Source of the DNA: an uncultured Bacteroides sp.
GTDB lineage: Bacteria > Bacteroidota > Bacteroidia > Bacteroidales > GCA-2748055
Direction: 5' to 3'
Assembly (NCBI GenBank): GCA_964604655.1
Contig: CAZRZY010000001.1
Span: 80-64,079, forward strand
DNA length: 64,000 bases
The position numbers and the translations under genes were made by a program. The notes under the pieces were generated by a model. That model was not told the DNA's origin and searched no databases. It was given only the letters and a program-made list of their open reading frames with translations. Numbering within the stretch: position 1 is the first letter of the stretch; every line of letters starts with the position of its first letter. Positions 12,577 to 56,688 of the stretch are shown piece by piece.

Positions 12577-12612
12577 TCTGAGCAACTTTCTGGTCAATTA
12601 TTGCTCTTTTTT

Positions 12613-12645
12613 ATCCGGAATCTGACAAATTCCGGATTTGTTTGT
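12613..12645 (+). terminator. Rho-independent terminator after leuA
   Basis: A perfect 9-bp stem ATCCGGAAT (12613-12621) / ATTCCGGAT (12629-12637) is followed by TTGTTTGTTATT. Confidence 0.5.
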
Positions 12646-12657
12646 TATTCCTACCAT

Positions 12658-32115: not shown

Positions 32116-34935
32116 TCACCGATGACGGGTGCGAAAATCGAAGGTCAGGGAAACAGAGAGGGCTTCTCCTTCCACTCTGCGGGGCAGGTACTGGTAGGGC
32201 CGGGAAAGAGGCCCCAGATGGCGGGGCTCCTTGAACTTGGTCCCGATGGCAGGTATGCCCCGCATGAAGGAAAGATCGCCTTTTGGGTGGCTCACCGTGG
32301 TGCGTGCCGGCTGCGGAGCCTCTCCCGGCGTGAAAAGCCGCAGAAACAGGTCCCTGGTGTGGCTGTAAACAGTGAAGTCAACTCCTTCTTCCCGGTAAAA
32401 CCTGGCCCAGTAAAGCTCCGAGTAATACCCCTTGAATTCCGGATACTCATAACCGGAATGCCCGGTGATGGTCTCATTGAACGGCTTCTCCCAGACATGG
32501 AACTGCACTCCTTTCATCCGATTCTTCCAGACCCGGTAGGGTCCGTTGCCCATGTAGCTAACCGAAGTGATCCCCTCCTCCGGGTAGGTGAAGGAAGCGC
32601 CTGTGTAAGGAATCGTGCCCCCTTCCGGCTGGTAGGAGAGCTCCATATCTACCAGTCCGTTCCTGTGAATGGTCCAGGTCAGACTTCCGCTGGCGCCATA
32701 ATCGGCCACTGCCACATGTGCATCTTCCCGGGCGAAATGGCGAAAGCTTTTCAGTTCCGGATCATCCCGCCGAAAAAGAGGGCCGTTGGTCAGGGGAATC
32801 ACACTTCCGTTTGACTCCACCTTCACCAGCCGCCCATCCCTCCTGGAAATTTCCAGCACCACTCCCCCGGCTTCCAGCTCCAGGCCGGATGCATTCTCCC
32901 TGACCTTAACGGGCTGCATATTCGCTTCCATGGTTTCAGGAAACTCGCTCTCCAGTTCTTCTGTGGAAATCGATGCCGGACTTTTTACCGGCCAGCTCCA
33001 GAGGTGGATGAGCCTTCCATGGGGGTCCACCGCCTCCAGGGTGAGGACATCGGCATGCCGCCACCCTTCGGTCAGGGGTACGGCCAACTCTCCCCACTGT
33101 CCGGGAGAAAGGGGGTCGACAAGGGGGCTCCCGAAATCGAGGATCCTGGCCGATTCGATCTCATCCGGGTATCTGGAGCCTCTGTTCCCCGGTCCGGGAA
33201 GATCGAGCCAGTGGTAACGGAAGGTGCACTGATCGAGTCCGGTATAATGAAACCGGTTCTGCACCCGGAAGATACCGTTGAATTCAGGAGTGATATACCG
33301 CTCCTCCAGATGGACCGGGGACCAGATGTGGCGAATGGTATAATAACTCCCTTCCTTCTGATGGTAGGGACCCAGGATCCCGTCAGGAGCATGGTTCCCG
33401 TCTGTATCCAGTTCTCCCGTGTCGGTCCTTCGGATGGCCTCATCGGCAAAGACCCAGAGAAAGCAACCGGCCGCCAGCGGGTGTTCCCATATCCGCAGCC
33501 AGTAGTCCTCCAGCCCCGCACCGTGTCCGCCGTCATAGAGTCCGTGAATCAATTCTGTGGGAAAGAAGACTTTGCGGGGGGCAAAATGATCCATCGACAG
33601 GTGATCATAGTTCATATAGTGGGCCGTATTGGTACTGCCGTGGACCGCCCAGGGATGATTCACCTCCCGCTGCTGGATATCCATCTCCCTGAAATCGGAA
33701 TCGTAGGCGGTGTTCCATCCCCCCTCGTTTCCATTGTCCCACATCACCACCGAAGGATGGTTCACATCCCTGGCAATCATCTCCCCCAGGAGCTTCCTGC
33801 CGACCACCGAATCGTAGGGGGGACGCTGCCATCCGGCCAGTTCATCCAGCACGAACAGGCCCAGGGAATCACACACTTCCAGGAAGTGCTTGTCGGGCGG
33901 GTAGTGAGACATCCTTACCGCGTTCATGTTCATATCCTTGATCAGGTTAACCACCTGGATGCTGAACTCCCTGGAGGAAGTCCGTCCATGGTCCGGATGG
34001 AAGGAGTGGCGGTTCACTCCTTTAAACTTGATGCGCCGGCCGTTCACGTAGATTCCATCCTGGGCGCGTACCTCCACGGTACGGAACCCTGTCTTTTCCC
34101 GGTGTCGATGAAGCACTTCTCCCTTCCTGTCGAGAAGGACGAACTCTGCCTGATACAGGGCAGGAAACTCCGGGTTCCAGGGTTGAATCCCCTCGACAAC
34201 GCCCTCCAGCCTGTGCACCCTTCCATCCCCGGTCTCTGCAGTGAAGCTTGATTTCTCCTGTCCGTCCGCCTCCAGCACCTCTACCCGGAGGGAAGATCCT
34301 TTTCTCAGATTCGAAGTGTAGACATCGGCCCGAAAGCTCCCGTCGGCACGGGCATCGATGGCCACCCGCCGGATGTGCTCCTTCGGCCGGGCCACCAGGT
34401 ATACCGGCCGGAAGATCCCTCCGAAAATCCAGTAATCGGCTTTCCGCTCCGCCTGATTGACCGACATGTTACCGGAGAATTTTTTCACAAATACTTCCAG
34501 GGTATTCTCCTTTCCATAATGCAGCAGTTCCGATATCTCATAGCTGAACCGGTAAAACGCTCCCTGATGGACCTCTCCGGCCTGCCGGCCGTTCAGCACC
34601 ACCCGGCAATCAGTCATTACCCCTTCGAATACCACATCAACGGACATCCCCTCCCAATCATCCGGTACGTTGAAGAGGTGACGGTAATGGCCCTCCTCCT
34701 TCAGTCGTTCCTCAAAGGGTACATGGCCGTAGTGATACTCCCCGAATCCCTGCTGCTCCCAGCAGGAGGGAACCTGGATGGTCGTCCACTGACCGCTGTT
34801 CCTGCCTGCCGTGCAGTAGAACTCCCACGTGGCGGTCCGGTCAAAACCGGTGCCGGAAAGATAACGCACCTGACTCTCCTGGGAATGTAAAATAAACGGA
34901 CCGATTATCAGAATAAGAGAAAATAATCGTTTCAT
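32116..34935 (-). CDS. Glycoside hydrolase family 2 (beta-galactosidase/beta-glucuronidase-like)
   Basis: The start at the internal ATG gives the signal MKRLFSLILIIGPFILHS. GH2 motifs are NAVRMSHYPP and the acid/base region VVMWDNGNEGG. The sugar-binding, Ig-like and TIM domain order fits the ~940-aa length. Confidence 0.85.
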   Translation of the reverse strand: MKRLFSLILIIGPFILHSQESQVRYLSGTGFDRTATWEFYCTAGRNSGQWTTIQVPSCWEQQGFGEYHYGHVPFEERLKEEGHYRHLFNVPDDWEGMSVDVVFEGVMTDCRVVLNGRQAGEVHQGAFYRFSYEISELLHYGKENTLEVFVKKFSGNMSVNQAERKADYWIFGGIFRPVYLVARPKEHIRRVAIDARADGSFRADVYTSNLRKGSSLRVEVLEADGQEKSSFTAETGDGRVHRLEGVVEGIQPWNPEFPALYQAEFVLLDRKGEVLHRHREKTGFRTVEVRAQDGIYVNGRRIKFKGVNRHSFHPDHGRTSSREFSIQVVNLIKDMNMNAVRMSHYPPDKHFLEVCDSLGLFVLDELAGWQRPPYDSVVGRKLLGEMIARDVNHPSVVMWDNGNEGGWNTAYDSDFREMDIQQREVNHPWAVHGSTNTAHYMNYDHLSMDHFAPRKVFFPTELIHGLYDGGHGAGLEDYWLRIWEHPLAAGCFLWVFADEAIRRTDTGELDTDGNHAPDGILGPYHQKEGSYYTIRHIWSPVHLEERYITPEFNGIFRVQNRFHYTGLDQCTFRYHWLDLPGPGNRGSRYPDEIESARILDFGSPLVDPLSPGQWGELAVPLTEGWRHADVLTLEAVDPHGRLIHLWSWPVKSPASISTEELESEFPETMEANMQPVKVRENASGLELEAGGVVLEISRRDGRLVKVESNGSVIPLTNGPLFRRDDPELKSFRHFAREDAHVAVADYGASGSLTWTIHRNGLVDMELSYQPEGGTIPYTGASFTYPEEGITSVSYMGNGPYRVWKNRMKGVQFHVWEKPFNETITGHSGYEYPEFKGYYSELYWARFYREEGVDFTVYSHTRDLFLRLFTPGEAPQPARTTVSHPKGDLSFMRGIPAIGTKFKEPRHLGPLSRPYQYLPRRVEGEALSVSLTFDFRTRHR

Positions 34936-35020
34936 TGGATGTTCCATAAAATAAAATGATGAAGTAGCTTCTGGTTCCAAGATCGCAATTTTTTTTCCGG
35001 ATCCAATCATTCTTCAAGGA

Positions 35021-35343: not shown

Positions 35344-36657
35344 ATGTTTCATTCCCATCGCTCTTTAATACGTTATCACACCCTGCTGCTTCTCCTGGGG
35401 ATCTCTGTTGCTTCTATGGCTCAGAACAGGCCGGAAAGAGAACAATGGCTGCAGGATAATGGATTCGGAATGTTCATCCACTGGAGTTTCGACTCGCAGC
35501 TGGGAATCGTCATCAGCCATTCGGCAGTAGGGGCCTCCGAATCATATACCGACCGGTACTTCCATCAGCTTCCAACCACTTTCAATCCCACTGCTTTCGA
35601 TCCGGACAGAATCGCCTACCTGGCAAAGATGGCGGGCATGAAATATATGGTCTTCACGGCCAAGCACCATTCGGGTTACTGCATGTGGGACACACGCACC
35701 ACCGATTTCAATATCATGGAAACATCCTATGGAAAAGATGTAGTCCGGGCATATGTGGAGGCGTGCAGAGCGCACGGACTGGCCGTGGGGCTCTATTTCT
35801 CCCCGGAGGATTTTCATTTTCTTTTCTCGGAGGACCAGGTGATCCGGCGCACCCGGATCCAGGAGATCCCGGCAGAGGTCAAAGAGCGTTATATCCGCCT
35901 TTTGAAGGAACAGTGCAGGGAGCTGCTCACCGGCTATGGACCCGTCGATATCATGTTCTTTGACGGGGGAGAGAATTTCCTGGTCGAAGATCTGAAGCCT
36001 TATTGCTGGGAGCTCCAACCCAACCTGCTGATTACCCGCGGCGAGATCGAGACCCCCGAGCAACACCTCCGGGAGCATCCTTCCGAGAGGGTCTGGGAAG
36101 CCTGTATGACCATGGGAACCCAGTGGCAGTTCAAACCCACCAACGAAAACTATAAAAGCGGAGGGGAGATCCTTAGATATCTGGTGGAGACTCGCGCCAA
36201 GGGGGGATCCCTGCTGATGAACGTCGGTCCAGACGCTTTTGGTACCCTGCCCCACGAACAGGAACGGATACTCACGGAGATTGCCGCATGGAATTTCATC
36301 AACGGAGAGTGCCTTCAGGAGGTGAGGCCCTGGAGGGTGACCAACGACGGCCCCGTCTGGTACACCTGGCATCCCGGTGAAAAGATCTTATATGCAGTTC
36401 TTTTTGGACAGGAGGAGTGGGAGAGAGGCGAACGCAGGGAGATCCTGCTCCCCTCGGTCCGTTCCACCGACCAGACCAGGATCAGCGTGCTGGGACAGTC
36501 GGGCGAGCTGGTGGAATACCAGCCGGAGGTGGCGGCAGATACACGATTTGAACAAGCCGGCCGGGGACTCAGGGTTTCCCTGGTCCGGGCGCAGCGTATG
36601 TACAACAATCACCGCTGGCCACATCCCCTGGTATTAAAACTGGAACATATAAACTAA
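35344..36657 (+). CDS. Alpha-L-fucosidase (GH29)
   Basis: It has a signal peptide. FGMFIHWSFDSQLG and KYMVFTAKHHSGYCMWDT are classic GH29 motifs. Confidence 0.85.
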   Translation: MFHSHRSLIRYHTLLLLLGISVASMAQNRPEREQWLQDNGFGMFIHWSFDSQLGIVISHSAVGASESYTDRYFHQLPTTFNPTAFDPDRIAYLAKMAGMKYMVFTAKHHSGYCMWDTRTTDFNIMETSYGKDVVRAYVEACRAHGLAVGLYFSPEDFHFLFSEDQVIRRTRIQEIPAEVKERYIRLLKEQCRELLTGYGPVDIMFFDGGENFLVEDLKPYCWELQPNLLITRGEIETPEQHLREHPSERVWEACMTMGTQWQFKPTNENYKSGGEILRYLVETRAKGGSLLMNVGPDAFGTLPHEQERILTEIAAWNFINGECLQEVRPWRVTNDGPVWYTWHPGEKILYAVLFGQEEWERGERREILLPSVRSTDQTRISVLGQSGELVEYQPEVAADTRFEQAGRGLRVSLVRAQRMYNNHRWPHPLVLKLEHIN

Positions 36658-36668
36658 ATCATATCCTT

Positions 36669-38339
36669 ATGAAACCCAACCGCACCATCTCTTTCCTGCT
36701 CCTCACTTTCCTGGCACTCCTCGGATCCTGCCGTAATACTTCTCAAACGGCTTCTCCGGATAGTTTCAATGCCGATGTAATTGTCTATGGAGGAACCTCT
36801 GCAGCGGTCACCTCGGCTATCCAGGTGGCCCGGATGGGAAAGAGTGTCATCATGGTCTCACCCGATAAACACCTGGGAGGATTGACCGCCTCGGGTCTGG
36901 GTTGGACCGATACAGGAAACAAGGCGGTCATCGGCGGGCTATCCCGAAACTTCTACCACCGCCTTTTCAATCACTACCAGGAGGAATCGGCCTGGATGTG
37001 GGAGGACAGGAGCGAATATGGCAATGTGGGGCAGGGAAATGTAGCCATCGACGGAGAGTTCCGAACCATGTGGATCTTTGAACCCAGCGCCGCCGAAAAG
37101 ATATTCGATGCCATGATAGCCGAATTTGAAGTTCCCGTCTACCGGGAGGAACTTCTGGACCGGAACGGGGGAGTAGTCACCAAAAACGGAGGGATCCGCT
37201 CCTTTCGAACCCTCAGCGGAAAGGTGTTTTCCGGAGAGGTGTTCATCGATGCCACCTATGAAGGAGACCTGATGGCAGCAGCCGGGGTCAGTTACCATGT
37301 GGGCAGGGAAGCCAACTCCGTATATAACGAGGAGTGGAACGGTGTTCAAACCGGAGTGCTCCACCACAGCCATCACTTTAAAACAGATATCAGTCCTTAC
37401 GTGGTGCCGGGAGATCCCTCCAGTGGTGTATTGCCCAGGATTTCCACCGAAAATCCCGGTGAATACGGGGAAGGTGACCACAGGGTCCAGGCCTACTGTT
37501 TCCGGATGTGCCTGACCCATGTACCGGAAAACCGGGTGGAGATCACCCGCCCGGAGAATTACGATTCTACCCAGTATGAACTGTTGGTCCGTATCTTCGA
37601 TTCGGGCTGGCGAGATGTATTTCACAAGTTCGATCCCATCCCCAACGGAAAAACCGATGTGAATAACCACGGCCCCTTCAGCTTTGACAATATTGGTATG
37701 AACTTTGATTATCCGGAGGCCGGATACGAACGCCGGAAGGAGATCATTGCCGAACATACCAGCTACCAGAAAGGATTGCTCTGGTTCCTGAAGTCCGATA
37801 CCAGGGTGCCTGAAGAGATAAGGACAGAGATGTCCCGGTGGGGCTTTCCGAAGGACGAGTTCACCGATAACGGTCACTGGCCACATCAGATCTACGTCAG
37901 GGAGGCCAGACGAATGATCGGTGAATACGTGATGACCGAGAACGAAGTTCTGGGCAGGCGTCCGGTGGAAGAATCGGTCGGTATGGGTTCCTATACCATG
38001 GATTCACACAATACCCAGCGTTACATCAAACCCGACGGGTTCGTGCAGAACGAAGGAGATATCGGGGTGAAGGCCCCCCGTCCCTACCAGATCGACCGCC
38101 GTTCACTGCTGCCTGTCAGGGAGGAGTGTGACAACCTCCTGGTCCCGGTATGCCTCTCCTGCTCTCACATCGCTTTCGGCTCCATCCGGATGGAACCGGT
38201 TTTCATGATCCTGGGACAGAGTGTCGCCACACTGGCCGTACTGGCCCTCGAATCGGATGCGCCCCCCCATGATGTTCCTTATGCTGTTCTGAGGCAGCAG
38301 CTGCTGGAGGATGGCCAGGTACTGGAGTATCAAGAATAG
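36669..38339 (+). CDS. FAD-dependent oxidoreductase (FAD_oxidored family common in polysaccharide loci), lipoprotein
   Basis: LLGSC is a lipobox. The dinucleotide-binding motif is DVIVYGGTSAAVTSAIQVARMGKSVIMVSPDKHLGGLTASGLG. Confidence 0.75.
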   Translation: MKPNRTISFLLLTFLALLGSCRNTSQTASPDSFNADVIVYGGTSAAVTSAIQVARMGKSVIMVSPDKHLGGLTASGLGWTDTGNKAVIGGLSRNFYHRLFNHYQEESAWMWEDRSEYGNVGQGNVAIDGEFRTMWIFEPSAAEKIFDAMIAEFEVPVYREELLDRNGGVVTKNGGIRSFRTLSGKVFSGEVFIDATYEGDLMAAAGVSYHVGREANSVYNEEWNGVQTGVLHHSHHFKTDISPYVVPGDPSSGVLPRISTENPGEYGEGDHRVQAYCFRMCLTHVPENRVEITRPENYDSTQYELLVRIFDSGWRDVFHKFDPIPNGKTDVNNHGPFSFDNIGMNFDYPEAGYERRKEIIAEHTSYQKGLLWFLKSDTRVPEEIRTEMSRWGFPKDEFTDNGHWPHQIYVREARRMIGEYVMTENEVLGRRPVEESVGMGSYTMDSHNTQRYIKPDGFVQNEGDIGVKAPRPYQIDRRSLLPVREECDNLLVPVCLSCSHIAFGSIRMEPVFMILGQSVATLAVLALESDAPPHDVPYAVLRQQLLEDGQVLEYQE

Positions 38340-38479: not shown

Positions 38480-39166
38480 ATGAAAAGATCGGAGATCAAC
38501 CGGCTCATTGAAGAGGCCCTCGGTTTTTTTGAGGATATGAACTTCAAACTCCCACCCTGGGGATACTGGTCCCCCGAAAAATGGATGGAAAGCACCGATA
38601 ATTTGGAAGAGATTGTCGAAAACCAGCTGGGTTGGGACCTGACCGATTTCGGTTCGGGTGATTTTAAAGAGACCGGACTCCTGCTCTTCACCATTCGAAA
38701 CGGTAATCTGAAACGGAATCAAAAGAGCTATGCGGAGAAGATCATGATCGTGGAGGAGGATCAGGTGACTCCCATGCATTTCCACTGGTCTAAAATGGAG
38801 GATATCATCAACAGGGGAGGAGGGAACCTGATGCTTCAGCTCTATCCATCGGATGAGGAGGAGGAGCCGGCCCATTTCCCCTTCGAGGTAAGCCTCGATG
38901 GCATCCGCAGGAGGTGCCATCCCGGTGATGTGATCAGGCTCCGGCCGGGTGAAAGCATCACCCTCTACCAGGGACTCTATCACAAGTTCTACGGCGAAAC
39001 AGGTAATGGAAGAGTATTGGTGGGAGAGGTCAGTGCGGTGAACGACGATCATTCCGACAACCGGTTCCATTTTGAGGTGGGAAGGTTCCCGAACATTGAG
39101 GAGGATGTAGCCCCATCCCATCTTCTGGTGGGGGATTACGAAACTTATCTGGCATCGAAAACATGA
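38480..39166 (+). CDS. D-lyxose/D-mannose ketol-isomerase-like cupin
   Basis: The N-terminal MKRSEINRLIEEALGFFEDMNFKLPPWGYWSPEKW pattern and the cupin His cluster (TPMHFHWSKMEDIINRGGG) resemble the D-lyxose isomerase family. Confidence 0.7.
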   Translation: MKRSEINRLIEEALGFFEDMNFKLPPWGYWSPEKWMESTDNLEEIVENQLGWDLTDFGSGDFKETGLLLFTIRNGNLKRNQKSYAEKIMIVEEDQVTPMHFHWSKMEDIINRGGGNLMLQLYPSDEEEEPAHFPFEVSLDGIRRRCHPGDVIRLRPGESITLYQGLYHKFYGETGNGRVLVGEVSAVNDDHSDNRFHFEVGRFPNIEEDVAPSHLLVGDYETYLASKT

Positions 39167-39212: not shown

Positions 39213-40571
39213 ATGAGAGGGATCCATATTATCATAACGGCCATCTTGCTGATGGTCTCCTGCAGGGAGCAGGAGCAACAATGGCCCAATGTATTGCTGA
39301 TACTGGCCGATGACATGGGATGGAACCAGCTGGGCTGCTACGGAGGCCCCTACCATACCCCTCATATCGACTCTCTCGCAGCCACCGGGATGCGGTTCAC
39401 CCAGGCCTACTCGGCCGCGGCGGTCTGCAGTCCCACCAGGGCGGCCCTGATGACCGGGAAATACCCGGCCCGGCTTCATCTGACCGATTTTATCAAAGGG
39501 CAGGAATTCCCCGATAGTCTTCTTTCTCAGCCGGACTGGCAGAAGTACCTGCCCCTCCAGGAAATCACCCTGGCGGAGGTGTTCAGGGAAAACGGTTACC
39601 GGACGGCCCTTTTCGGAAAATGGCACCTGAGCCGGGAAAAGCAACCCCCGGGTTCTCTGCCTTTCAATCCCGATAAACAGGGATTTGACGAGTATATGAT
39701 CACCTATAAACCGGTTCGGGGAAAGACCGATCCCGACCACGATCCTCATAACATCGACTCCATAACCCGCCGGTCGGTACAATTTATGGAACAGCACCGG
39801 AACAGACCTTTTCTGCTGGTGGTATCCCACAATGCCATTCATGATCCGATCATGGAGAGTGAGATCCGAGTGGAGCGATATGAACGGCAGTTCACCGGTT
39901 CCCGGTACCGGGTGGACCCGCGGCTTGGAGCCATGGTTTCCAGGCTGGACCAGTCCACGGGTGTTATTCTGCGTACCCTGGATCAACTGGGCCTGACCGG
40001 CCACACCCTGATCCTGTTCTGCTCAGACAACGGAGGGAAAGAACATTACGCCAGCCAACACCCCTTCCGGCGAGGAAAGGGATGGCTCTATGAAGGGGGG
40101 ATCAGGGTTCCCATGATCGCCAGCTGGCCGGGCCGGATTCCCGCAGGCAGGGAGAATAATGTGATCACCTCCACCATCGACCTCTTTCCCACCATTCTGG
40201 AAATGACCGGCCTTTACGGCCTTGCGGACGGGATGGACGGGATCTCCATGGTTGGGGAGTTCAGGGGAGAAGATCCGCCCCTGGAACCGAGAAACCTGTA
40301 TTGGCATTACCCTCACTACCACCGGGGTTCGGGCATGAAACCGGCCTCCGCCATCCGGGTGGGTGACCTGAAACTGATCGAATGGCATGAGGAATTTATG
40401 CTGCATGAACATGCCTGGGAACTATACGACCTTTCGGCCGATCCAGGTGAGGAGAGGGACCTTTCCCTTGAAGATCCCTCCACCCTGGATGAGATGCGAA
40501 AAGCACTCTACCTCTGGCGAAACGAAATGGATGCACAGATGCCCGTTGTGAAAACCCGGACCTACCCATGA
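39213..40571 (+). CDS. Sulfatase (Cys-type)
   Basis: It has a lipoprotein signal, NVLLILADDMGWNQLGCYGG, the signature CSPTRAALMTGKYPAR, and GKWHL. Confidence 0.85.
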   Translation: MRGIHIIITAILLMVSCREQEQQWPNVLLILADDMGWNQLGCYGGPYHTPHIDSLAATGMRFTQAYSAAAVCSPTRAALMTGKYPARLHLTDFIKGQEFPDSLLSQPDWQKYLPLQEITLAEVFRENGYRTALFGKWHLSREKQPPGSLPFNPDKQGFDEYMITYKPVRGKTDPDHDPHNIDSITRRSVQFMEQHRNRPFLLVVSHNAIHDPIMESEIRVERYERQFTGSRYRVDPRLGAMVSRLDQSTGVILRTLDQLGLTGHTLILFCSDNGGKEHYASQHPFRRGKGWLYEGGIRVPMIASWPGRIPAGRENNVITSTIDLFPTILEMTGLYGLADGMDGISMVGEFRGEDPPLEPRNLYWHYPHYHRGSGMKPASAIRVGDLKLIEWHEEFMLHEHAWELYDLSADPGEERDLSLEDPSTLDEMRKALYLWRNEMDAQMPVVKTRTYP

Positions 40572-41605
40572 AAAAGTACCATGGTGCGCTGACAACGCTT
40601 TTACTGGCTCTCTTTACGGGAACCTTTGCACCGGCACCGTCAAAGGGGTACCGCTCCGGTCCCGACCAAATAATCAGGAAACAACTGCTCACCCGGCTGG
40701 GGATCGACCTTCCCCTGACGCCGGAGAATATGCAAGCCATCCAGGAACATCCTGCCATGAGGGAATACCAGGCGGAGAGTTGGCACAAAAGGGTCGACCG
40801 GATGAAGGAGAAGCCCCCGAGGCCCAGGGGAATGGGTGAACCGGGCAGAAACAATCCGTGGATGCCGGAACGACTCATTCCTTATTTTACAGAATGGCTA
40901 AAAAATGAATACAATACGCTGGAAAACCTGAAGCAGGCATGGATTTGCTTAAGGGTACGGTGCTACCCCCGGGGGCGTAATCGCCGCAATTACGGCCGCC
41001 AATCAAGGTTTGTCGGTAATGCTCATCGAACCCATGTCCGTGATAGGGGGAATGTACAGCAGCGGGCTGAACTTCAACAAGGTGGCCCTGGCGGGAGTAT
41101 CCTACACATTCGGACGCGAGTCGGTTGCAGAGTATAATGAATCTCTTGCCGGGGTGAGACTCATTGACGATACGTTGAAAGGACGAACGGTGGATGAACA
41201 AGGTGCTCTACTTCCATATTTCAACTGCTATGACACCCTGATTCCCGGCAGTGGCGATGAACGGGTGATGAATTACAATTTCAGGCCGACCATGACTAAA
41301 GACTCGGCTAATTTCGTAGCGGATTACCTTCAAAGCAGTCCTGCACTGAAACCTGGGGATCTCATTGGAATTTTCCCGCGCGGATCAGGAAAATATGAGT
41401 TTAATAACCAGCAGAGATCGTTGATATCCCTGGGAATGTTCGGGGCCAATGCCGGTTATACGAACGGGGATCAGAAGACCTGGACGCTGATTTGATCAGA
41501 GAGTATGACGATTATGATTGGCTGAACGGACACCGCAGATTCGGTGACCGGTTTAAAAGATTATATTCCCATTATGGTGTCGATCCGGAGGATTCTAAAT
41601 CTTAG
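40568..41605 (+). pseudogene. Fragmented coding region: signal-peptide N-terminal piece plus frame-shifted, internally deleted FAD-dependent oxidoreductase
   Basis: Three reading frames are needed. Frame A (from 40568) gives a signal peptide and ...YFTEWLKNEYNTLENLKQAW. From 40953, frame C gives GYGATPGGVIAAITAANQGLSVMLIEPMSVIGGMYSSG, a dinucleotide-binding motif paralogous to 36669..38339. That frame stops after ~180 aa (41495), and a further frame continues to 41605. Confidence 0.6.
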
Positions 41606-41642: not shown

Positions 41643-43448
41643 ATGATGATGAACCGTATCTCAGCTGTACTTCTTCTTACATCTTCTTTGCTCTTCCTTT
41701 CGGGATGTGTGAAGGAGGTTTTTGTGGAATGTGAATCTTTCGAAGAACATGGCGGATGGGTGGTCGATCCCCAGTTTGTGGAACAGATGGGCTCCCCCTA
41801 TCTGATGGCCCATGGCATGGGGGAACCAGTGGAAAATGCCCGGACAACCATCGAGATTCCGGCAGGCGGAACCTACCATGTCTGGGCCCGGACAAGAGAC
41901 TGGGCTCCCGGAAGATGGGAGGCACCCGGGCGGTTTCATGTACTCCTGGACGGGGCCGCATTGCCTGAGACTCTCGGCGACCAGATGGGAGGCTGGGGGT
42001 GGAATTATGCCGGTAAGACAAAAGCAATAAAAGGAAGCGCCACATTGGAAGTGGAGGATCTGACGGGATTCAACGGCCGGTGTGATGCCATCTATATCTC
42101 CAACCGGTACCGGACCCCCACTAACGAACCGGGATACCTTCGCGACATGCGCGAAACCCTCACCGGAAAGAGGGAGTTACCCGGGAAGGTCCTGGATTTC
42201 GACCTGGTGGTGGTAGGAGGGGGGATCGCCGGTTGTGCTGCAGCCATTGCTGCGGCCGAAGAAGGAATGGAAGTGGCCCTGGTTCACGACCGGCCCGTCC
42301 TGGGTGGGAACGCCAGCAGCGAGATCCGCGTCCATACCCTTGGCATATACGGGCACTTTGAAAGGATCCTGAAAATGCTCGACACCGAACACTACCCCAA
42401 CGGTTCCCCCGATGCCTTCCTGGACGAGGAGAAAAGGCATAAAAACATCCAACAGTACGACCGGATATCCCTTTTGTTGGAGACCAGGGCTTACCGGGTG
42501 GACACGCTGAACGGGGAGATCACGGCAGTGGATGCGCGGCACACCCGGACCGGTGAAACGATCCGGCTCCGGGCCCCTTACTTTGCTGACTGTACGGGGG
42601 ATGGGTGGATCGGATACTGGGCAGGTGCGGAATACATGTATGGCCGTGAACCAGTGGACCAATACGGAGAGCAGTGGGAGGAGTTCGGCGAGCTTTGGAG
42701 CCCTGATGAGGCGGACGACAAGGTGATGGGCTCTTCGGTACTGTGGCGGACCCGTGAAGCGGATACCATCTCCCCTTTTCCCGAAGTACCTTGGGCCATG
42801 GAGGTGGCCGGAAGCCATGCCGCCAGAAAGGGAACCTGGCACTGGGAGCTGATCAGCGAGGAGTGGAACCAGGCGGAACAGGGGGAACAGATCAGGGACC
42901 ACATGCTGAAAGCGATCTACGGTTCCTTCTACAATGAAAAGCAGAAAACGGGCTCCGACAGCCTGGAGCTGGAATGGGTCTCTTACCTGCTCGGAAAACG
43001 GGAGTCGAGGCGACTGGTGGGAGATTACATCTATACGTTTAACGATGAGAGGGAGTCCCGTACTTTTCCCGATGCAGTGGTCATGGAGGACAGGGCGGTG
43101 GATGTACACTACCGTCAGGATGAGCTGGATGATTCGAAGCCGGGATTTCTGACCGAAGCCATGTTTTACCTCGCCGAACGCTACTACATCCCTTACCGCT
43201 CGCTCTACACCCGTGATATCGGTAACCTGTTTATGGCAGGACGATGCTTCAGTTGCAGCCACGTGGGACTGGGAGGACCCCGGGTGATGCGCACCACGGG
43301 CCAGATGGGAGCAGCGGTGGGGTATGCATCTGCTGTGTGCCACAGGAACGATTGTACGCCCCGCCAACTCTACGAAGACCATCTGGAGGAGTACATGGAG
43401 CTGGTGCGCTCTTCCGATGACCGGAACCGGCAAACGACCCATCCATGA
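41643..43448 (+). CDS. FAD-dependent oxidoreductase with ~170-aa N-terminal extra domain, lipoprotein
   Basis: The lipobox is LFLSGC. The N-terminal domain is rich in W/G (GGWGWNYAG). The FAD motif is FDLVVVGGGIAGCAAAIAAAEEGMEVALVHDRPVLGGNASSE. Confidence 0.8.
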   Translation: MMMNRISAVLLLTSSLLFLSGCVKEVFVECESFEEHGGWVVDPQFVEQMGSPYLMAHGMGEPVENARTTIEIPAGGTYHVWARTRDWAPGRWEAPGRFHVLLDGAALPETLGDQMGGWGWNYAGKTKAIKGSATLEVEDLTGFNGRCDAIYISNRYRTPTNEPGYLRDMRETLTGKRELPGKVLDFDLVVVGGGIAGCAAAIAAAEEGMEVALVHDRPVLGGNASSEIRVHTLGIYGHFERILKMLDTEHYPNGSPDAFLDEEKRHKNIQQYDRISLLLETRAYRVDTLNGEITAVDARHTRTGETIRLRAPYFADCTGDGWIGYWAGAEYMYGREPVDQYGEQWEEFGELWSPDEADDKVMGSSVLWRTREADTISPFPEVPWAMEVAGSHAARKGTWHWELISEEWNQAEQGEQIRDHMLKAIYGSFYNEKQKTGSDSLELEWVSYLLGKRESRRLVGDYIYTFNDERESRTFPDAVVMEDRAVDVHYRQDELDDSKPGFLTEAMFYLAERYYIPYRSLYTRDIGNLFMAGRCFSCSHVGLGGPRVMRTTGQMGAAVGYASAVCHRNDCTPRQLYEDHLEEYMELVRSSDDRNRQTTHP

Positions 43449-45907
43449 GACAGAAACATTGGTTTACCTTCCTGCTCCCCGCCGTCCTCCTGGCATGGCT
43501 CCTGTCAGGTTGCCTGCCTGACGAAAAAGTGATGCTCAGCGGGATCTATCCACACCTGGCATATTACAACCACGAAGGGGAATGCGGTACCGGGGCGGTG
43601 GTACCCTGGGCAGACCGGCTGTGGGTGGTGACCTACGGACCCCATCTGCCACATGGATCCTCCGACAAACTTTACGAAATAACCAGGGATCTGGAGAAGA
43701 TCACCCGGCCGGAGAGCATCGGGGGAACTCCGGCCAACCGGATGATCCACCGCGAGAGTAACCAGCTGTTTATAGGCCCCTACGCCATCAGCGGAGAGGG
43801 GAAGGTGCAGGTGATCCCCTACGACCGGATGCCGGGACGGCATACCGGCAATGCCCGGCATCTGGCCGATCCCGAAGGAAAGATCTATTATGCTACCATG
43901 GAAGAAGGATTTTACGAAGTGGACGTGGCGAGCCTCCGGGTTACCACCCTGGTACCTGACGCCCACCAGCTTCCTGAGGATCCATACGGCAAATTTCTTC
44001 CCGGCGCACACGGCAAGGGATTGTACTCCGGACAGGGCGTACTGGTCTACTCCAATAACGGAGAAGCTTCCCGCGAGGCACGTACCCGGTTCGATGCGGA
44101 ATCGGGGGCGTTGGTGGAATGGAATGGAAGCGATTGGAAATTGATCCGCAGAAACCAGTTTGTGGAAGTAACCGGTCCGGGAGGGATCTATGGGAACTCC
44201 CATCCGGCCACCGATCCCATTTGGGCCACGGGATGGGACCAGAAATCCCTGTTGCTGGGAGTAAGGGATGCGAAAACCAATGACTGGCGATTCTACCGCC
44301 TTCCCAAAGCAAGCCACAGTTACGACGGTGCGCACGGCTGGAATACCGAATGGCCCAGGATCAGGGATGTGGGCACCCCGGGCTCTCCCGACTACCTGAT
44401 GACCATGCATGGGATGTTCTGGCGTTTCCCGGAAAACTGGAACCCCTCGGGCAGCGGGGGGATCAGGCCCCGTTCGGCCTACCTGAAGGTGATCGGTGAT
44501 TTCGCCAGGTGGGGAGACCGGCTCGTAATGGGATGTGACGATTCAGCCCAGCGGGAATTCCTCAATAAACGGAAGGTCAAAGGTTCTATTGAAGGGCCGG
44601 GACAATCCAACTCTAACCTCTGGTTTATGGACCCGGAAATGCCCGGCCTGCTGGGACCTGCCACTGCCGAAGGCGGGGTCTGGTTGAAGGAACGGGTAAC
44701 CGCCGGAGTTCCATCCGAGCCTTTCCTGTTTACCGGGTGGACTCACCGAACCTGTTGGATTCAGCAACATGGTGAACATCCGGTGGAGTTAATCCTCGAG
44801 ACCGACCTGATTGGAGACGATACCTGGACCGAGTTGCAGAGGGTAGTGGTCGCTGGTGGTGAAAGCCTTCAGCTTCCGTTCAGTGAAACGGATCGCGGGG
44901 AGTGGATCCGGGCCATCCCGCAGGATTCTGCAAGGGTGACACTCCATTTCTGCTACACGGACCCCGATCTCAGGGATACTATTCCGGAAGATCTTTTCCG
45001 GGGTATCTCCTTTTCTTCGGATCACGCTTCGATTGGTGGTCTTCTCTATGGTCTGGGTGACGATCAGGAAAAGCTGGGTCTGGCCGTCAGCCGTTTTGAA
45101 GGAGACCAATCCGCACCGGGAGGGTATTATGAACTGGATGAATCACTGCAACTGGTTCGGACAGAGGAACCCGGAAAGGAAGAGTTTATCAGAGAGAAAT
45201 TTGCCATTCCGGAAGGATTGGTCTCCGTAGAGTCCTCGTCGGTTCTGGTGATCGATGACAGCGGCAGAAGATGGAGGCTGCCGCCTGGCGAAACACCACT
45301 GGATCTGCTGACCGAAAGCGGTACCCTCAGAATTTCCCGTGAAGTGGCCACCGAGCGGGATCTGTTCAGCTGCCACGGGACCTTCTATGAACTGCCTGCC
45401 GAAAATGCAGACGGATTCGCCAAGATCCGCCCGGTGGCTTCCCATCCCTTCCGGATTCATGATTATGCCAGTTATCGGGGACTGCTGGTCATGACGGGGA
45501 TCGATCCGGAATATGCCGGGACAAATCCACACGTGATCACCTCTGAGGATAGGAAAGCAGCCGTTTGGGCCGGTGTGATCGACGATCTCTGGAAACTGGG
45601 CAAACCCACCGGCAGGGGCGGACCATGGCACCGGACTCTGGCAGAGGCAGGGGAGCCTTCCGATCCCTACCTGATCGGGTTCTATGACCGGAAACATTTG
45701 ATGATCACCCACGATTCCCCGGGTGCCGTTACCATCGCAGTGGAAATCGATCCTACGGGACATGGTCCCTGGATGAAATACAGGGAGGTGACCCTGGATC
45801 CCGGAGAGACCTTCAATTATCTGTTTCCCGCTCATTTCCAGGCGCGATGGATCCGGTTCCGGAGCCATCAAAGTGCACGGATAACCACGCTGCTGACCTA
45901 CGAATAA
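43445..45907 (+). CDS. Large lipoprotein of unknown function (820 aa)
   Basis: An ATGA start/stop overlap links it to the upstream oxidoreductase gene. The lipobox is WLLSGC. I saw no catalytic motif, and the repetitive beta-rich composition suggests a propeller/sandwich architecture (inference). Confidence 0.6.
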   Translation: MRQKHWFTFLLPAVLLAWLLSGCLPDEKVMLSGIYPHLAYYNHEGECGTGAVVPWADRLWVVTYGPHLPHGSSDKLYEITRDLEKITRPESIGGTPANRMIHRESNQLFIGPYAISGEGKVQVIPYDRMPGRHTGNARHLADPEGKIYYATMEEGFYEVDVASLRVTTLVPDAHQLPEDPYGKFLPGAHGKGLYSGQGVLVYSNNGEASREARTRFDAESGALVEWNGSDWKLIRRNQFVEVTGPGGIYGNSHPATDPIWATGWDQKSLLLGVRDAKTNDWRFYRLPKASHSYDGAHGWNTEWPRIRDVGTPGSPDYLMTMHGMFWRFPENWNPSGSGGIRPRSAYLKVIGDFARWGDRLVMGCDDSAQREFLNKRKVKGSIEGPGQSNSNLWFMDPEMPGLLGPATAEGGVWLKERVTAGVPSEPFLFTGWTHRTCWIQQHGEHPVELILETDLIGDDTWTELQRVVVAGGESLQLPFSETDRGEWIRAIPQDSARVTLHFCYTDPDLRDTIPEDLFRGISFSSDHASIGGLLYGLGDDQEKLGLAVSRFEGDQSAPGGYYELDESLQLVRTEEPGKEEFIREKFAIPEGLVSVESSSVLVIDDSGRRWRLPPGETPLDLLTESGTLRISREVATERDLFSCHGTFYELPAENADGFAKIRPVASHPFRIHDYASYRGLLVMTGIDPEYAGTNPHVITSEDRKAAVWAGVIDDLWKLGKPTGRGGPWHRTLAEAGEPSDPYLIGFYDRKHLMITHDSPGAVTIAVEIDPTGHGPWMKYREVTLDPGETFNYLFPAHFQARWIRFRSHQSARITTLLTYE

Positions 45908-45985
45908 TGAGTATAACAGAGCAATTTAATCGAATATAAATAATCTGACAAGCTATTTTTAGAATCGATTATAATGTGTGCTATA

Positions 45986-47905
45986 ATGAAATTAAATTAT
46001 ATAATACCGGGCTTTAAGTATCGATCTTTTTTCCCTATCCTGGCTCTCATACTCCTAACAGGTTTTACTGCCTGTAACAAGAAAGACCAATTCAGGGCTG
46101 ACTTTCAAATGATTGATCCTGACCGCATCACGGATACTACCGAGAACGTGGGCGTGTTCGGAGGATCCACCCGCATTACCCGGAAACCGGTGGAAGCCGG
46201 TGGAGCCACCTGGAATGTGGAATCAGGAAGGCTTTATCTTGATTTTGAAGAGCTTGGCTATTTCAGCATCACCCCCGAGGTGATTGGTCTGCCCGGATCA
46301 TGGAAAGGACTGGAGACCTTGCATGTAAAGTTGCATTCCGATACCATTGCCACCCTGATCCTGGAGATATACGGGCGCCGCTCCCGGATCAGGGATACAC
46401 TGTCCGTTAAGAAAGGGCGTTCCCGGCATGAAATGGATATTCGTGAAACAGCGTTGCTTGGAGGACTGGATGTGATGCCGGACCGGATACGGATCACATC
46501 AGCAGATCCCTCCCGCGTGCAAATAAGTCATTTGAGGCTTCAGAAGGGGGAGGAGCAGCTCTTTCTGATCGATCGCTGGGGTCAGCGGGCATTATCCCAT
46601 TGGCCGGGTAAAGTGCAATCGAAGGAGCAGTTGATCGATCTCACCGGAGAAACCGCGTTCCTGGATTCTCTGACCTCCATTGACGAGAAGGGATCGCTGG
46701 ATCCCTATGGCGGATATGCCGGCAGGGAGCTGTTATTTGATGCAACGGGCTTTTTCCGGGTGGATAAAAGGGACGGCCGTTGGTGGCTGGTGACCCCCCT
46801 GGGCAATCCGTTCTACAGCCTCGGGGTGAACGGAGTCCGGATCAAATCGTTCAGGAGTACGGCCGATGTTACCCGGATTCAGGGAAGAGAGGAGCTCTTT
46901 GCGGAGGTTCCTGAATTCGAACAATGTCCCCTGTGCTTCATGGAAGATTCCACCTATTTCTCATTCTACAGCTGGAATATCCGGAAGAAATACCCCACCA
47001 TCGAAAAATGGAAGGATCAGACTGAGAGGAGGTTACGGACGACAGGATTCAATACCATCGGGAACTGGAGCGACACCCTTTACTATCTGGAACCGAAAAT
47101 GCCCTATACGTATACCCTGGACAGCCGGAGGAATCCGGAGGTGATGATGTCCAACGGCATGCCGGATGTGTTCCATCCGGGCTGGGAGGAACATCTGTCA
47201 GTTGCATTCTCTATGATCACTGATTTCAGAGTGGATCCCTTTTTGCTGGGATATTTTGTGGACAATGAAATGGGATGGGGTGCCATCAACCGCCCCGATT
47301 CTTCCAGTCACACCTTCCCCGTACTGGAACGCTATGAAACGGAGGAAGAAAAGCGGGCGGTCTATGCCGAACGCTATTTTTCTACCGTCAGACAGGCCAT
47401 ACGGTTACATGATCCCAACCACCTCTACATGGGGTGCCGGTTTACCCGGAACTTCAGACGAATGGCCCCCATTGCAGAGGCTGCGGGAAGGCATGTGGAT
47501 ATTTTGTCCATCAATGTCTATTCGGCTCATCCCATCAAACAGCAGATGGACCAGTGGTACCGGGCAGCCAGAAGACCCATGCTCATCGGGGAACATCACA
47601 TTCCGCCCCGAACTGCCAGACAACTCTGGCCCAGGTATCCCAATTTTCCTCTGCCGGAACGCGATTCGATGCTGTCAAACTATATCTCCACCTGGGCCGG
47701 TTACCCGTATGCTGTAGGAAGCCATTGGTACCAGTATAAGGACCAGGAAGTGGCCGGCAGGGGAGATGGTGGTGAGAACCAGCCGATCGGACTTGTTACC
47801 GTGGCCGACCAGCCCAACTATCCGCTTCTGGAAACCTACCATTGGATCGCCAACCAGCTGCCGGATTGGCTGGGAGTGGGCTATTCGATGATTGCCGGCA
47901 AATAA
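45986..47905 (+). CDS. Putative glycoside hydrolase, clan GH-A-like TIM barrel (family not assignable by eye), lipoprotein
   Basis: The lipobox is LLTGFTAC. GFNTIGNWSD, YFVDNEMGWG (NE acid/base-like) and PMLIGEHHI (candidate nucleophile Glu) follow the GH-A pattern. The start is at ATG 45986. Confidence 0.55.
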   Translation: MKLNYIIPGFKYRSFFPILALILLTGFTACNKKDQFRADFQMIDPDRITDTTENVGVFGGSTRITRKPVEAGGATWNVESGRLYLDFEELGYFSITPEVIGLPGSWKGLETLHVKLHSDTIATLILEIYGRRSRIRDTLSVKKGRSRHEMDIRETALLGGLDVMPDRIRITSADPSRVQISHLRLQKGEEQLFLIDRWGQRALSHWPGKVQSKEQLIDLTGETAFLDSLTSIDEKGSLDPYGGYAGRELLFDATGFFRVDKRDGRWWLVTPLGNPFYSLGVNGVRIKSFRSTADVTRIQGREELFAEVPEFEQCPLCFMEDSTYFSFYSWNIRKKYPTIEKWKDQTERRLRTTGFNTIGNWSDTLYYLEPKMPYTYTLDSRRNPEVMMSNGMPDVFHPGWEEHLSVAFSMITDFRVDPFLLGYFVDNEMGWGAINRPDSSSHTFPVLERYETEEEKRAVYAERYFSTVRQAIRLHDPNHLYMGCRFTRNFRRMAPIAEAAGRHVDILSINVYSAHPIKQQMDQWYRAARRPMLIGEHHIPPRTARQLWPRYPNFPLPERDSMLSNYISTWAGYPYAVGSHWYQYKDQEVAGRGDGGENQPIGLVTVADQPNYPLLETYHWIANQLPDWLGVGYSMIAGK

Positions 47906-47932: not shown

Positions 47933-48783
47933 ATGAGAAATGTGATTGGCGTTACAATAGTTACATTCATATTCATTAGCTGCTCATCACCAATTAATAA
48001 CAACGATCACCTAAAGCCAAATGTTATATATATCATGGTGGATGATATGGGGTATGCCGGATCGCCTGTCTGTGCCCCTTCGCGCAGCACATTGATGACC
48101 GGGATGCATACCGGCCACACGACGGTGCGTGGTAATAAATCACAGATCCCGCTGGATCTTCCCAATCCCGATCGTGTTCCGCTCAGGAATGAGGATTTTA
48201 CGCTGGCGGAGCTGTTCAAAAATGCCGGGTATGTGACCGGTATGACCGGCAAATGGGGACTGGGGGAGCCCGGAACCACCGGCGAATTCAATGCCCAGGG
48301 ATTCGACCAATGGATGGGGTTCCTGAATCAACGGAGAGCCCATAACCACTTTGCCGAATACATCTGTAGATCCGGATCCCAATGATCGCCTGGATGCCAG
48401 GAGCCGTTCCGGAAGGAAGCACCAGTGATTTTCCCTGGTAATTCCCGGATGTTTTACCCACCATGGCCGAGTTCATCGGTGAGCAACCCCCAACAGGGAT
48501 AGACGGGATCAGCGTGCTTCCGGAGATCCTGGGAAATGATATGTTACCCGGGAATCGATTTATGTACTGGGAGTTCCATGAAGGGGACTTTTTCCAGGCA
48601 GTCCGCTGGAAGGACTGGAAAGCGGTCAGAAAAGGCCTGGAAGGCCCCCTGGAACTTTACGACCTTTCTATCGATCCTTCCGAGACCACCGATCGGATCC
48701 TGGATTTTCCTGAGGTGAGAGAAACCATACTTCACTACCTGGATACAGCCAGAACAGAATCAGACTACTGGATCGCCAGATAG
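47933..48783 (+). pseudogene. Decayed sulfatase gene (three lesions)
   Basis: In NVIYIMVDDMGYAGSPVCAPSRSTLMTGMHTGH, about 30 aa normally found between DDMGY and the CxPSR signature are missing. The central ~170 aa are missing with a frame change near 48370-48385. The C-terminal frame IRIPMIAWMPGAVPEGSTSDFPW*FPDVLPTMAEF has an in-frame TAA at 48439-48441. Confidence 0.75.
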
Positions 48784-55695: not shown

Positions 55696-56688
55696 CTATT
55701 CAAGAGACAAAGCCGCAGCGCCAATGACTCCCGCATCGCTGGCTATCTCCGACAGCACGATCCGGACCGGATCGAAAATCATCTCCCTGATCAAACTGTA
55801 GAAGGTTTCCCGGATATGGTTCAGATAAAAATCTCCCCAATTGGTCAGTCCACCACCGATCACGATCAGGGGTGGATTCAATACCTGGAAAAGGTTATAA
55901 AGGCCTATTCCCACATAGCGAGCGCTGTCGGCAATCACTGCCCTGGAAAGAGGATCGCCCATATCAAGCCCCTTTTTCAGGGTCTGCCCGTTAATCTTCG
56001 AGAGATCAAAATGTGCGGGGATATGTAATTTGGTTATTACCCCCTCCTCCAGCTTCTTCCGGAAAAGATGGGGAAGGGCCATTCCACAAGCGCAGGCCAT
56101 CAGGCAACCCCGGTTTCCGCAGGTACAGACCAATTCGCTCTGCGGTTCCACAATGGTGTGACCAAATTCTCCGGCGGTTCCGGTCATTCCCCGGTAGAGC
56201 TTCCCCTCCAGAATGATACCCGCACCGATTCCGGTGCTGACCGTGACAAAAATCATATCGTTGAAGCCTCTCCCGGCCCCGAACCTGAACTCCCCATAGG
56301 CTTGTGCGTTGGCATCGTTGTCGAGAATCACAGGAATGTTGAAATGATGCTGCAGCTCACTTCTCAACGGATAATTACGAAATCCTTTCAGGTTGGAGCT
56401 GGTGATCATAATCCCCTCGCGGAACCGGATATGTCCTGCCGATCCCACTCCGATGGCGGGAAGGTCTTTTTCCTGCAACCTGTTCCTGTGAAGGATCTCC
56501 TTCACCTTTCCGGCCACCATTGCGATCACCTCCTCCTCCTTTCGGTCCACGTGGGCACAGGTCTGTATCTTGTCAAGGAGGAAACCGTGCTCATTGATCA
56601 GGCCGATGGCTACTTTGGTCCCTCCGATGTCTACACCGCAGAGTATTTGTTGAGCGTCCTTAACCGATGGTGTGTTCTGTTCGTGCAA
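55696..56688 (-). CDS. ROK-family sugar kinase
   Basis: The ATP-binding motif is CGVDIGGTKVAIG, and the ROK Zn motif region is CTCGNRGCLMACACG. The only ATG (56829) lies deep inside the upstream GRE gene, so I propose a TTG start at 56688. The exact start is uncertain. Confidence 0.75.
   Translation of the reverse strand: MHEQNTPSVKDAQQILCGVDIGGTKVAIGLINEHGFLLDKIQTCAHVDRKEEEVIAMVAGKVKEILHRNRLQEKDLPAIGVGSAGHIRFREGIMITSSNLKGFRNYPLRSELQHHFNIPVILDNDANAQAYGEFRFGAGRGFNDMIFVTVSTGIGAGIILEGKLYRGMTGTAGEFGHTIVEPQSELVCTCGNRGCLMACACGMALPHLFRKKLEEGVITKLHIPAHFDLSKINGQTLKKGLDMGDPLSRAVIADSARYVGIGLYNLFQVLNPPLIVIGGGLTNWGDFYLNHIRETFYSLIREMIFDPVRIVLSEIASDAGVIGAAALSLE

Follow-up and report, generated by a model that had tools for sequence, protein, structure and literature searches.

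In a stretch of 64,000 nucleotides from contig CAZRZY010000001.1 of an uncultured Bacteroides sp. (assembly GCA_964604655.1; the whole stretch is called the window here), three consecutive genes on the forward strand, which we name A, B and C, encode exported proteins, each with an N-terminal signal peptide that ends in a lipobox cysteine (LSGC, LSGC and FTAC, respectively), and sulfatase genes flank the trio (Table 1). A preliminary description of this DNA had proposed that the three genes form an undescribed glycan-processing module, consisting of a flavin adenine dinucleotide (FAD) oxidoreductase with an unusual N-terminal domain rich in tryptophan and glycine, an 820-residue lipoprotein in which no motif was recognised, and a clan GH-A-like enzyme lacking any family-diagnostic sequence. 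The sequence bears out the three successive lipoproteins, their setting in a sulfatase island and the overlap of A with B, where direct reading of the junction around position 43441 gives cat-cca-tga-gac, the stop codon of A and the start codon of B sharing the letters ATGA; the spacer between B and C is 66 bp long and AT-rich. The idea of a candidate undescribed activity is a fair one for A and B, since B is unannotated, occurs in glycan loci and has a recurring A-type neighbour, but not for C, which belongs to glycoside hydrolase family GH50. Overall, loci for glycan utilisation are a familiar type of system; this one has at its core a widespread, uncharacterised family, represented by B, together with an optional extracytoplasmic flavin module.

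B is a member of a very large, strongly conserved family that has no name. It has no match in Pfam (E ≤ 0.01) or NCBIfam (E ≤ 1), and neither B alone nor a profile built from 33 sequences retrieved any sequence from the PDB, in keeping with the absence of a recognisable motif remarked on in the preliminary description. When 23 distant relatives were compared with Pfam at E ≤ 1, just scattered weak matches appeared, each in a single member; the weak F5/8-type-C and CBM35-like matches in the family are isolated in the same way. Among 5.8 billion proteins searched, homologues of B form 7,771 clusters at E ≤ 0.001, the best 120 of which align over the full length at 62-67% identity, while an exhaustive search among representatives clustered at 50% identity found 1,510 relatives, 432 of them below 1e-30. 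Those homologues that carry a name in their source records are all called 'hypothetical protein', and we found no description of the family in the literature. At least 564 stretches of species-representative genomes encode B, and the best 80 of these all come from Bacteroidota, with hosts from soil (Spirosoma, Dyadobacter, Chitinophaga and Larkinella), from the gut (Parabacteroides distasonis and Bacteroides congonensis) and from marine or sediment habitats (Prolixibacteraceae and Cyclobacteriaceae). More distant members, at roughly 40-55% identity, are labelled Planctomycetota, Verrucomicrobiota, Armatimonadota and Acidobacteriota. The mean column identity among 33 Bacteroidota homologues is 68%, and more than 100 columns, many of them Arg, His, Glu, Asp or Trp, are invariant in an alignment of 74 sequences from several phyla.

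To describe the fold of B, we used AlphaFold models from two alignments. The first run relied on a shallow alignment whose sequences were all more than 60% identical to B, and its model had a predicted local distance difference test score (pLDDT) of 74.7, with disorder in the loops that are most conserved and only generic propellers among its structural matches. For the second, relatives from other phyla were added, and the resulting AlphaFold2 model (pLDDT 93.5, predicted template modelling score 0.92) predicts a seven-bladed β-propeller followed by a C-terminal β-rich region, in which a β-sandwich (residues ~405-565), a mixed β domain (~570-720) and a further β-sandwich (~723-819) follow one another. 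Foldseek comparison of this model with the PDB returned generic propellers only, at template modelling (TM) scores of 0.15-0.27 normalised to B; the closest local fold is the seven-bladed propeller of Escherichia coli YncE, with a TM score of 0.59 on the target and 0.27 on the query. Among the PDB matches, no established family of glycoside hydrolases or lyases was prominent, families PL22, PL24, PL25, PL42 and GH145 were not in the top 50, and no structure in the PDB or in a viral structure library matched B over its full length. For B, the structural check suggested in the preliminary description has yielded a propeller model that lacks a full-length counterpart in the PDB. B was also considered as a PQQ-type dehydrogenase, as a phosphatase of the PhoX or phytase-like kind and as a factor for sulfatase maturation, but neither sequence nor fold gave evidence for any of these identities, and they were dropped.

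Invariant charged residues mark the first (innermost) strand, or the position immediately ahead of it, in six of the seven blades (E46, R99, R132, H189/K191, E302/R305 and D352), and R138 and R307 are further invariant basic residues. From the model we infer a putative active site in the axial pocket of the propeller, where the carboxylates of E46, E302 and D352 would lie together with a cluster of Arg, His and Lys side chains. Propellers serve as catalytic scaffolds in several groups of carbohydrate-active enzymes (CAZymes), with five blades in GH43 and GH32, six in the GH181 and GH33 sialidases, and seven in PL22, PL24, PL25 and in GH145 and PL42. With these enzymes and with YncE, B has in common a propeller with appended β-sandwiches, conserved charged residues on the innermost strands and a setting in glycan loci, but it shows zero sequence similarity to them and its four-part architecture is unmatched. 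Comparisons with Pfam, NCBIfam, PDB sequences and PDB folds all set B apart from the families that they cover. It is a good candidate for a new family of carbohydrate-degrading enzymes.

To assess the genomic context of B, we called and clustered the open reading frames (ORFs) in a first set of 83 loci, mostly from Bacteroidota (80 genome loci and three contig loci), and examined a second set of 83 further loci of mixed phyla, made up of 79 metagenome loci obtained with a profile of a distant subfamily and loci L084-L087. In the first set, SusD is found near B in 56 loci and SusC in 52, followed by a PF12831 flavoprotein (31), a FecR anti-σ factor (30), an extracytoplasmic function (ECF) σ factor (27), an S1 sulfatase (18), a protein of ~367 residues without a Pfam match that we call c7 (18), an M14-like peptidase (7), and CstA, a sodium:solute symporter and ApbE (5 each). 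More than 50 of these loci have B as the gene directly after susD, and the strongest partner of B is the SusC/SusD pair and not the flavoprotein. The most frequent layout is ECF σ - FecR - SusC - SusD - B, often without further genes, and it is commonly extended as B - flavoprotein - c7 or as B - c7 - flavoprotein - ApbE. The second set contains an A-type flavoprotein in 7 loci and any PF12831 protein in 12, with sulfatases in ~20 and GH29 in ~7; GH29 and a sulfatase beside B recur in the metagenome loci. No SusC/D-like genes were detected near B in the Planctomycetota, Verrucomicrobiota and Acidobacteriota loci examined.

Gene fusions add to this picture. An S1 sulfatase is fused to the N-terminus of B in five independent representatives of 50%-identity clusters, and an M14-like peptidase domain is fused there in one (the fusion-bearing relatives are P0121, P0123, P0130, P0152, P0166 and P0185). 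The closest solved relatives of the fused sulfatase are the S1_11 GlcNAc-6-sulfatases 7p24 and 5g2v. Other family members bear WD40-type propeller, bacterial TSP3, FecR or type IX secretion system (T9SS) sorting domains. A minimal unit occurs in Spirosoma fluviale (L001) and about ten other loci of soil Bacteroidota, in which a divergently transcribed gene for the protein c8 (~450 residues, no significant Pfam match, possibly a regulator) precedes SusC - SusD - B. In L001, these are followed by the gene of a hybrid two-component regulator whose sensor domain is of the periplasmic-binding-protein type.

Gene A encodes, by family assignment, an exported FAD enzyme. Residues 187-582 match PF12831 (FAD_oxidored) with E = 4e-66 and 224 bits against a curated cut-off of 27, across model positions 1-413 of 416, and this full-length match includes the dinucleotide-binding (Rossmann) motif. 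Beyond what the PF12831 family has in common, A carries a lipoprotein signal and, ahead of its FAD fold, a conserved domain of ~155 residues, which agrees with the unusual N-terminal domain pointed out in the preliminary description. This domain shows 48 invariant columns in an alignment of eight homologues, including W18, W60, W66, W97 and W99 and many glycines, and it accompanies the FAD domain in other loci too. Its single Pfam match, to Golvesin_C, is weak (E = 0.002), and a profile search of the PDB with it was empty. It is probably a β-sandwich or a carbohydrate-binding-like module, and it probably binds glycan. Homologues of A number ~8,000, and the best 120 align at 62-90% identity over the full length, N-terminal domain included. 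PDB matches to A reach only the region of the dinucleotide-binding motif (~40-50 residues), with no characterised close relative found, and the literature yielded no function for PF12831 proteins in loci of this type.

The link between A and B is real and recurs across phyla, but it is facultative. In 31 loci of the first set, the gene for an A-like protein, with both the N-terminal domain and the FAD fold, shares the strand of B and lies no more than 10 kb away; the two genes are directly adjacent in 13 loci, and c7 alone stands between them in 8 more. The flavoproteins beside B fall into at least two subgroups, with 60-73% and 32-48% identity to A, respectively. The order FAD556 - LyxIso - A - B of the window, in which FAD556 is a second PF12831 flavoprotein and LyxIso a sugar isomerase-family protein, is found again in locus L007. 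Among three A orthologues chosen at random, one (L169) lies in the arrangement A - c7 - thioredoxin-like - SusC - SusD - B. Outside Bacteroidota, a Bryobacteraceae genome (Acidobacteriota) carries BNR_2 - PF12831 - B - PF12831, where B is separated from the first PF12831 gene by 3 bp and from the second by 25 bp. Co-occurrence of the pair across phyla, which the preliminary description had put forward for checking, is found, Acidobacteriota included, though not as a strict rule: the majority of B loci lack a PF12831 gene at this distance.

Two syntenic relatives of the window, L167 and L168, show how the neighbourhood of A differs between lineages. Both share a backbone with the window at 62-79% protein identity, which comprises a PD40 protein, an aldo-keto reductase, a sulfatase, FAD556 or LyxIso, and A, together with a DEAD helicase and, after A in L168, VTT and a PQQ-propeller. 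The shared sulfatase corresponds to that at 30652-32046 (64-72% identity). Neither relative has B, C, GH2, GH29 or the S1_16-like sulfatase at 39213-40571, which indicates that the island grew through insertions around A. Hence, in this lineage, A is part of a conserved backbone, and B and C have been added beside it. LyxIso precedes A in L167, and in L168 a split PF12831 gene, the orthologue of FAD556, lies immediately upstream of A, so that FAD556 and LyxIso are conserved upstream partners of A. The conserved isomerase-A and flavoprotein-A arrangements of L007, L167 and L168 hint at a sugar-conversion route tied to PF12831 flavoproteins.

In related loci, the flavoprotein has further partners. 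The c7 proteins are secreted and ~360 residues long, and 15 of 19 members contain a conserved Dxx[ST]GAT motif; they are encoded beside A-like flavoproteins, sometimes together with ApbE and a thioredoxin-like protein (for example at L008:14591-15718 and L169:11794-12876, and in 17 other related loci outside the window). Orthologues or paralogues of A elsewhere adjoin both a protein with this motif and ApbE. The motif of c7 sets [S/T]GA[S/T] in a Dxx[ST]GAT context, and it has been validated experimentally as the site of flavinylation by ApbE, for which the named substrate classes are the FMN-binding domain, DUF2271 and DUF3570 (PMC8238504). No FMN_bind, DUF2271 or DUF3570 match was found for c7 in Pfam, and because it falls outside these named classes, c7 may possibly represent a new class of flavinylated protein. 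The related loci resemble the extracytosolic flavinylated systems of that study in pairing an A-like flavoprotein with ApbE and a secreted protein bearing the [S/T]GA[S/T] motif, whereas the trio of the window is without these partners nearby.

Gene C, in contrast to what the preliminary description had held, can be placed in a family. Its NE...E pattern of clan GH-A was correctly noted, but phmmer comparison with the PDB gives significant similarity to GH50 enzymes (Aga50D 4bq2, E = 9e-45; 4bq4, 2e-44; 6xj9, 6.6e-44; 5z6p, 1.3e-43; 5t3b, 1.9e-18). The alignment runs from the β-sandwich into the (β/α)8 barrel over residues 182-620, in three segments (182-293, 328-446 and 462-620), and retains the catalytic pair of glutamates of clan GH-A: FVDNE(432)MGWG of C pairs with FIDNEKSFG, whose Glu is replaced by Gln in 4bq4, and LIGE(540)HHIP pairs with IIGEFHIG. 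Allowing for an offset of 43, the aligned positions are those that we take to be E534 and E695 of Aga50D. These features make C an unremarkable addition to GH50 in clan GH-A, and it would be a retaining hydrolase of the β-galactan type. It has both catalytic glutamates and both domains in common with the GH50 β-agarases (Aga50D of Saccharophagus degradans, 4bq2; 6xj9; 5z6p; and the Bacteroides enzyme 5t3b), but it is ~100 residues shorter than Aga50D and matches it only in the three conserved segments. None of the scanned island genes was of another agarolytic kind (GH16-, GH86- or GH117-type), and the substrate of C therefore need not be agarose. The preliminary description had named placement of B and C in characterised CAZy families as a result that would speak against its proposal, and for C this is what we find. 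A GH50-like gene occurs near B in just one of the 166 other loci, and C is thus a local neighbour rather than a member of a conserved unit.

The island around the trio extends from ~30.6 to ~48.8 kb and contains three S1 sulfatase genes (one of them disrupted), a GH2 and a GH29 gene, an isomerase gene and three PF12831 genes, counting A and a decayed one. What can still be read of the decayed gene matches only residues 40-108 and 202-290 of a FAD556-like protein, and the sulfatase pseudogene has lost its middle third (residues ~163-296). The occurrence of the S1_16-like sulfatase, which matches the κ-carrageenan sulfatase structure 9fo1, together with GH50 and GH2 suggests that the substrate of the island is a sulfated galactan. 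Elsewhere in the window, on the reverse strand at 55696-59077, a gene for a pyruvate-formate-lyase-like glycyl radical enzyme (805 residues) adjoins one for a ROK-family protein. It is likely that the host is anaerobic or facultatively anaerobic, a point of relevance to the electron acceptor that A could use.

Table 1. Genes, domains and sites of the sulfatase island, in window coordinates
Feature	Position	Strand	Length	Basis and remarks
S1 sulfatase	30652-32046	-		Pfam
GH2	32116-35010	-		Pfam
GH29 α-L-fucosidase	35344-36657	+		Pfam
FAD556, second exported PF12831 flavoprotein	36669-38339	+	556 aa	Pfam
LyxIso, cytoplasmic D-lyxose/D-mannose isomerase-family protein	38480-39166	+		Pfam
S1 sulfatase, nearest S1_16 κ-carrageenan sulfatase	39213-40571	+		PF00884; PDB 9fo1, E 1.9e-100
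Decayed PF12831 gene remnant	40568-41495	+		Weak Pfam match; two overlapping ORFs
Gene A	41643-43448	+	601 aa	ORF; predicted exported lipoprotein flavoenzyme
A, N-terminal W/G-rich domain	41709-42167	+	aa ~23-175	Unannotated; conserved in homologues
A, PF12831 FAD-binding oxidoreductase fold	42201-43388	+		GxGxxG motif at ~aa 192
ATGA overlap	43445-43448	+	4 bp	A stop TGA 43446-43448; B start ATG 43445-43447
Gene B	43445-45907	+	820 aa	ORF; lipoprotein of a large unannotated family
B, predicted seven-bladed β-propeller	43532-44644	+	aa ~30-400	Model secondary structure; seven four-stranded blades
B, predicted C-terminal β-rich region	44657-45904	+	aa ~405-820	Model secondary structure
Gene C	45974-47905	+	643 aa (639 aa from second ATG, 45986)	ORF; GH50 lipoprotein
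C, acid/base E432	47267-47269	+		D430-N431-E432; alignment with GH50
C, nucleophile E540	47591-47593	+		G539-E540; alignment with GH50
Disrupted S1 sulfatase (pseudogene)	47933-48783	+		Two fragments in different frames

To account for these observations we propose, tentatively and at somewhat less than an even chance for the picture as a whole, that the region is the enzyme portion of a Bacteroidota locus for the degradation of a sulfated (anionic) glycan, in which B is an uncharacterised enzyme acting on that glycan, A an optional redox accessory and C a GH50 hydrolase; the catalysis by B, the anionic substrate and the redox role of A are the parts that we infer. Either on the cell surface or in the periplasm, and together with the SusC/SusD import route, B would cleave a glycosidic linkage adjacent to a sugar whose negative charge comes from sulfate or carboxylate groups. 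A would oxidise or reduce either the product of B or its substrate. In genomes other than that of the window, A would draw on the flavinylated partner c7 and on ApbE; in the window, A and B would be co-transcribed and translationally coupled. The abundance of invariant basic residues in B, together with the sulfatase fusions, is our reason for proposing an anionic sugar. Several observations weigh against this proposal. Surface glycan-binding proteins (SGBPs), which are not catalytic, typically have their genes directly after susD as well, we know of no enzyme related to B, and the pocket has been placed from the secondary structure of a model. About 60% of the B loci from Bacteroidota, and ~85-90% of the mixed-phylum metagenome loci, lack a PF12831 gene within 10 kb, and L167 and L168 have A while lacking B, so that A and B are not mutually required. 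In the soil genomes of Spirosoma, Dyadobacter and Larkinella, B occurs without a nearby sulfatase, and sulfate may therefore not be the common feature of its substrates; the M14 and CstA neighbours could indicate substrates that contain peptide. Finally, no SusC/D, c7 or ApbE gene is found near the trio in the window, and one has to go as far as 12601-14991 and 60734-62965 to meet ORFs that resemble TonB-dependent receptors.

The frequent position of B after susD, in over 50 of the 83 loci, raises the possibility, which we regard as doubtful though not negligible, that B is itself an SGBP in the SusE/F position, capturing glycan for SusC/SusD while other enzymes carry out catalysis. Like such proteins, B is a lipoprotein with β-sandwiches, which resemble carbohydrate-binding modules; one weak fold match is to SGBP-B of Bacteroides thetaiotaomicron, and fusion to a sulfatase or another enzyme is a frequent arrangement for binding modules. 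However, SGBPs are usually poorly conserved, whereas B retains 60-67% identity across Bacteroidota classes and its invariant columns across phyla, and it is common in loci of Planctomycetota, Verrucomicrobiota and Acidobacteriota that lack a detected SusC/D-like gene nearby. B is also the sole enzyme candidate in many polysaccharide utilisation loci (PULs), minimal ones included, and because of this, of its extreme conservation and of its presence in those phyla, we consider B more likely to be an enzyme than a binding protein. Whether an enzymatic B must act on glycans at all is a separate matter, as an M14-like peptidase is adjacent in seven loci and fused once, CstA transporters occur in five, and SusC/D-like pairs import peptides in some Bacteroidota (RagAB); the substrate might then be a peptide, a glycopeptide or some other polymer with negative charge, and the surroundings of B in the window would relate to glycans only incidentally. 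We find this very unlikely, given that the fusions and neighbours of B are mostly S1 sulfatases, GH29 and GH2 and that Pfam scan and Foldseek gave no sign of a peptidase motif or fold in B.

The remaining explanations concern the relation between the genes rather than the nature of B, and they depart from our proposal in opposite directions. If A and B formed an obligate pair for two-step oxidative cleavage, A would oxidise a sugar hydroxyl to a keto group and B would then cleave the activated keto-glycoside by elimination or hydrolysis, as might be read from their translational coupling in the window, the recurrence of their adjacency in two phyla, and the presence in related loci of c7 and ApbE as extracytoplasmic partners for flavin electron transfer. 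Oxidative cleavage was among the activities mentioned in the preliminary description, but none of the present results demonstrates it. Most B loci, however, have no PF12831 gene nearby, the A-like proteins beside B belong to at least two subgroups, and A persists without B in L167 and L168, all of which makes an obligate pair quite unlikely. At the other extreme, the trio may not be a functional unit, its proximity reflecting only the assembly of an island in which B and C were inserted next to a conserved A. The backbone of L167 and L168, which is free of B, C, GH2, GH29 and the S1_16-like sulfatase, the decayed genes on either side of the trio, and the rarity of GH50 near B would fit this explanation, but the four-base overlap suggests that A and B are expressed together, and the adjacency of A-like genes and B recurs independently in many lineages, and we hold it to be unlikely. 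An optional association of A with an enzymatic B, with C as a local addition, remains the account that we favour.

A wider possibility, which we regard as improbable in its full form though still worth stating, is that B founds a new CAZyme family of seven-bladed propeller hydrolases or lyases that act on anionic or sulfated sugars, accompanied in many bacteria by a flavin relay of A-type PF12831 proteins, c7 and ApbE. If this were true, extracytoplasmic glycan breakdown would include a redox step wired to the electron pool of the cell, either the oxidative activation of glycosides or the reduction of an unsaturated product. The exported flavoproteins of PF12831 are uncharacterised and common in sulfatase-rich genomes, and their pairing with B and with the flavinylation machinery offers a concrete place to probe redox chemistry in the extracytoplasmic degradation of glycans. 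With thousands of members, in Bacteroidota from soil, gut and marine habitats and in four other phyla, the B family is among the larger families still without a name, a domain model or a structure. As B is the only candidate enzyme in many PULs, identifying its substrate would annotate thousands of loci and could add a new family to the classification of carbohydrate-active enzymes.

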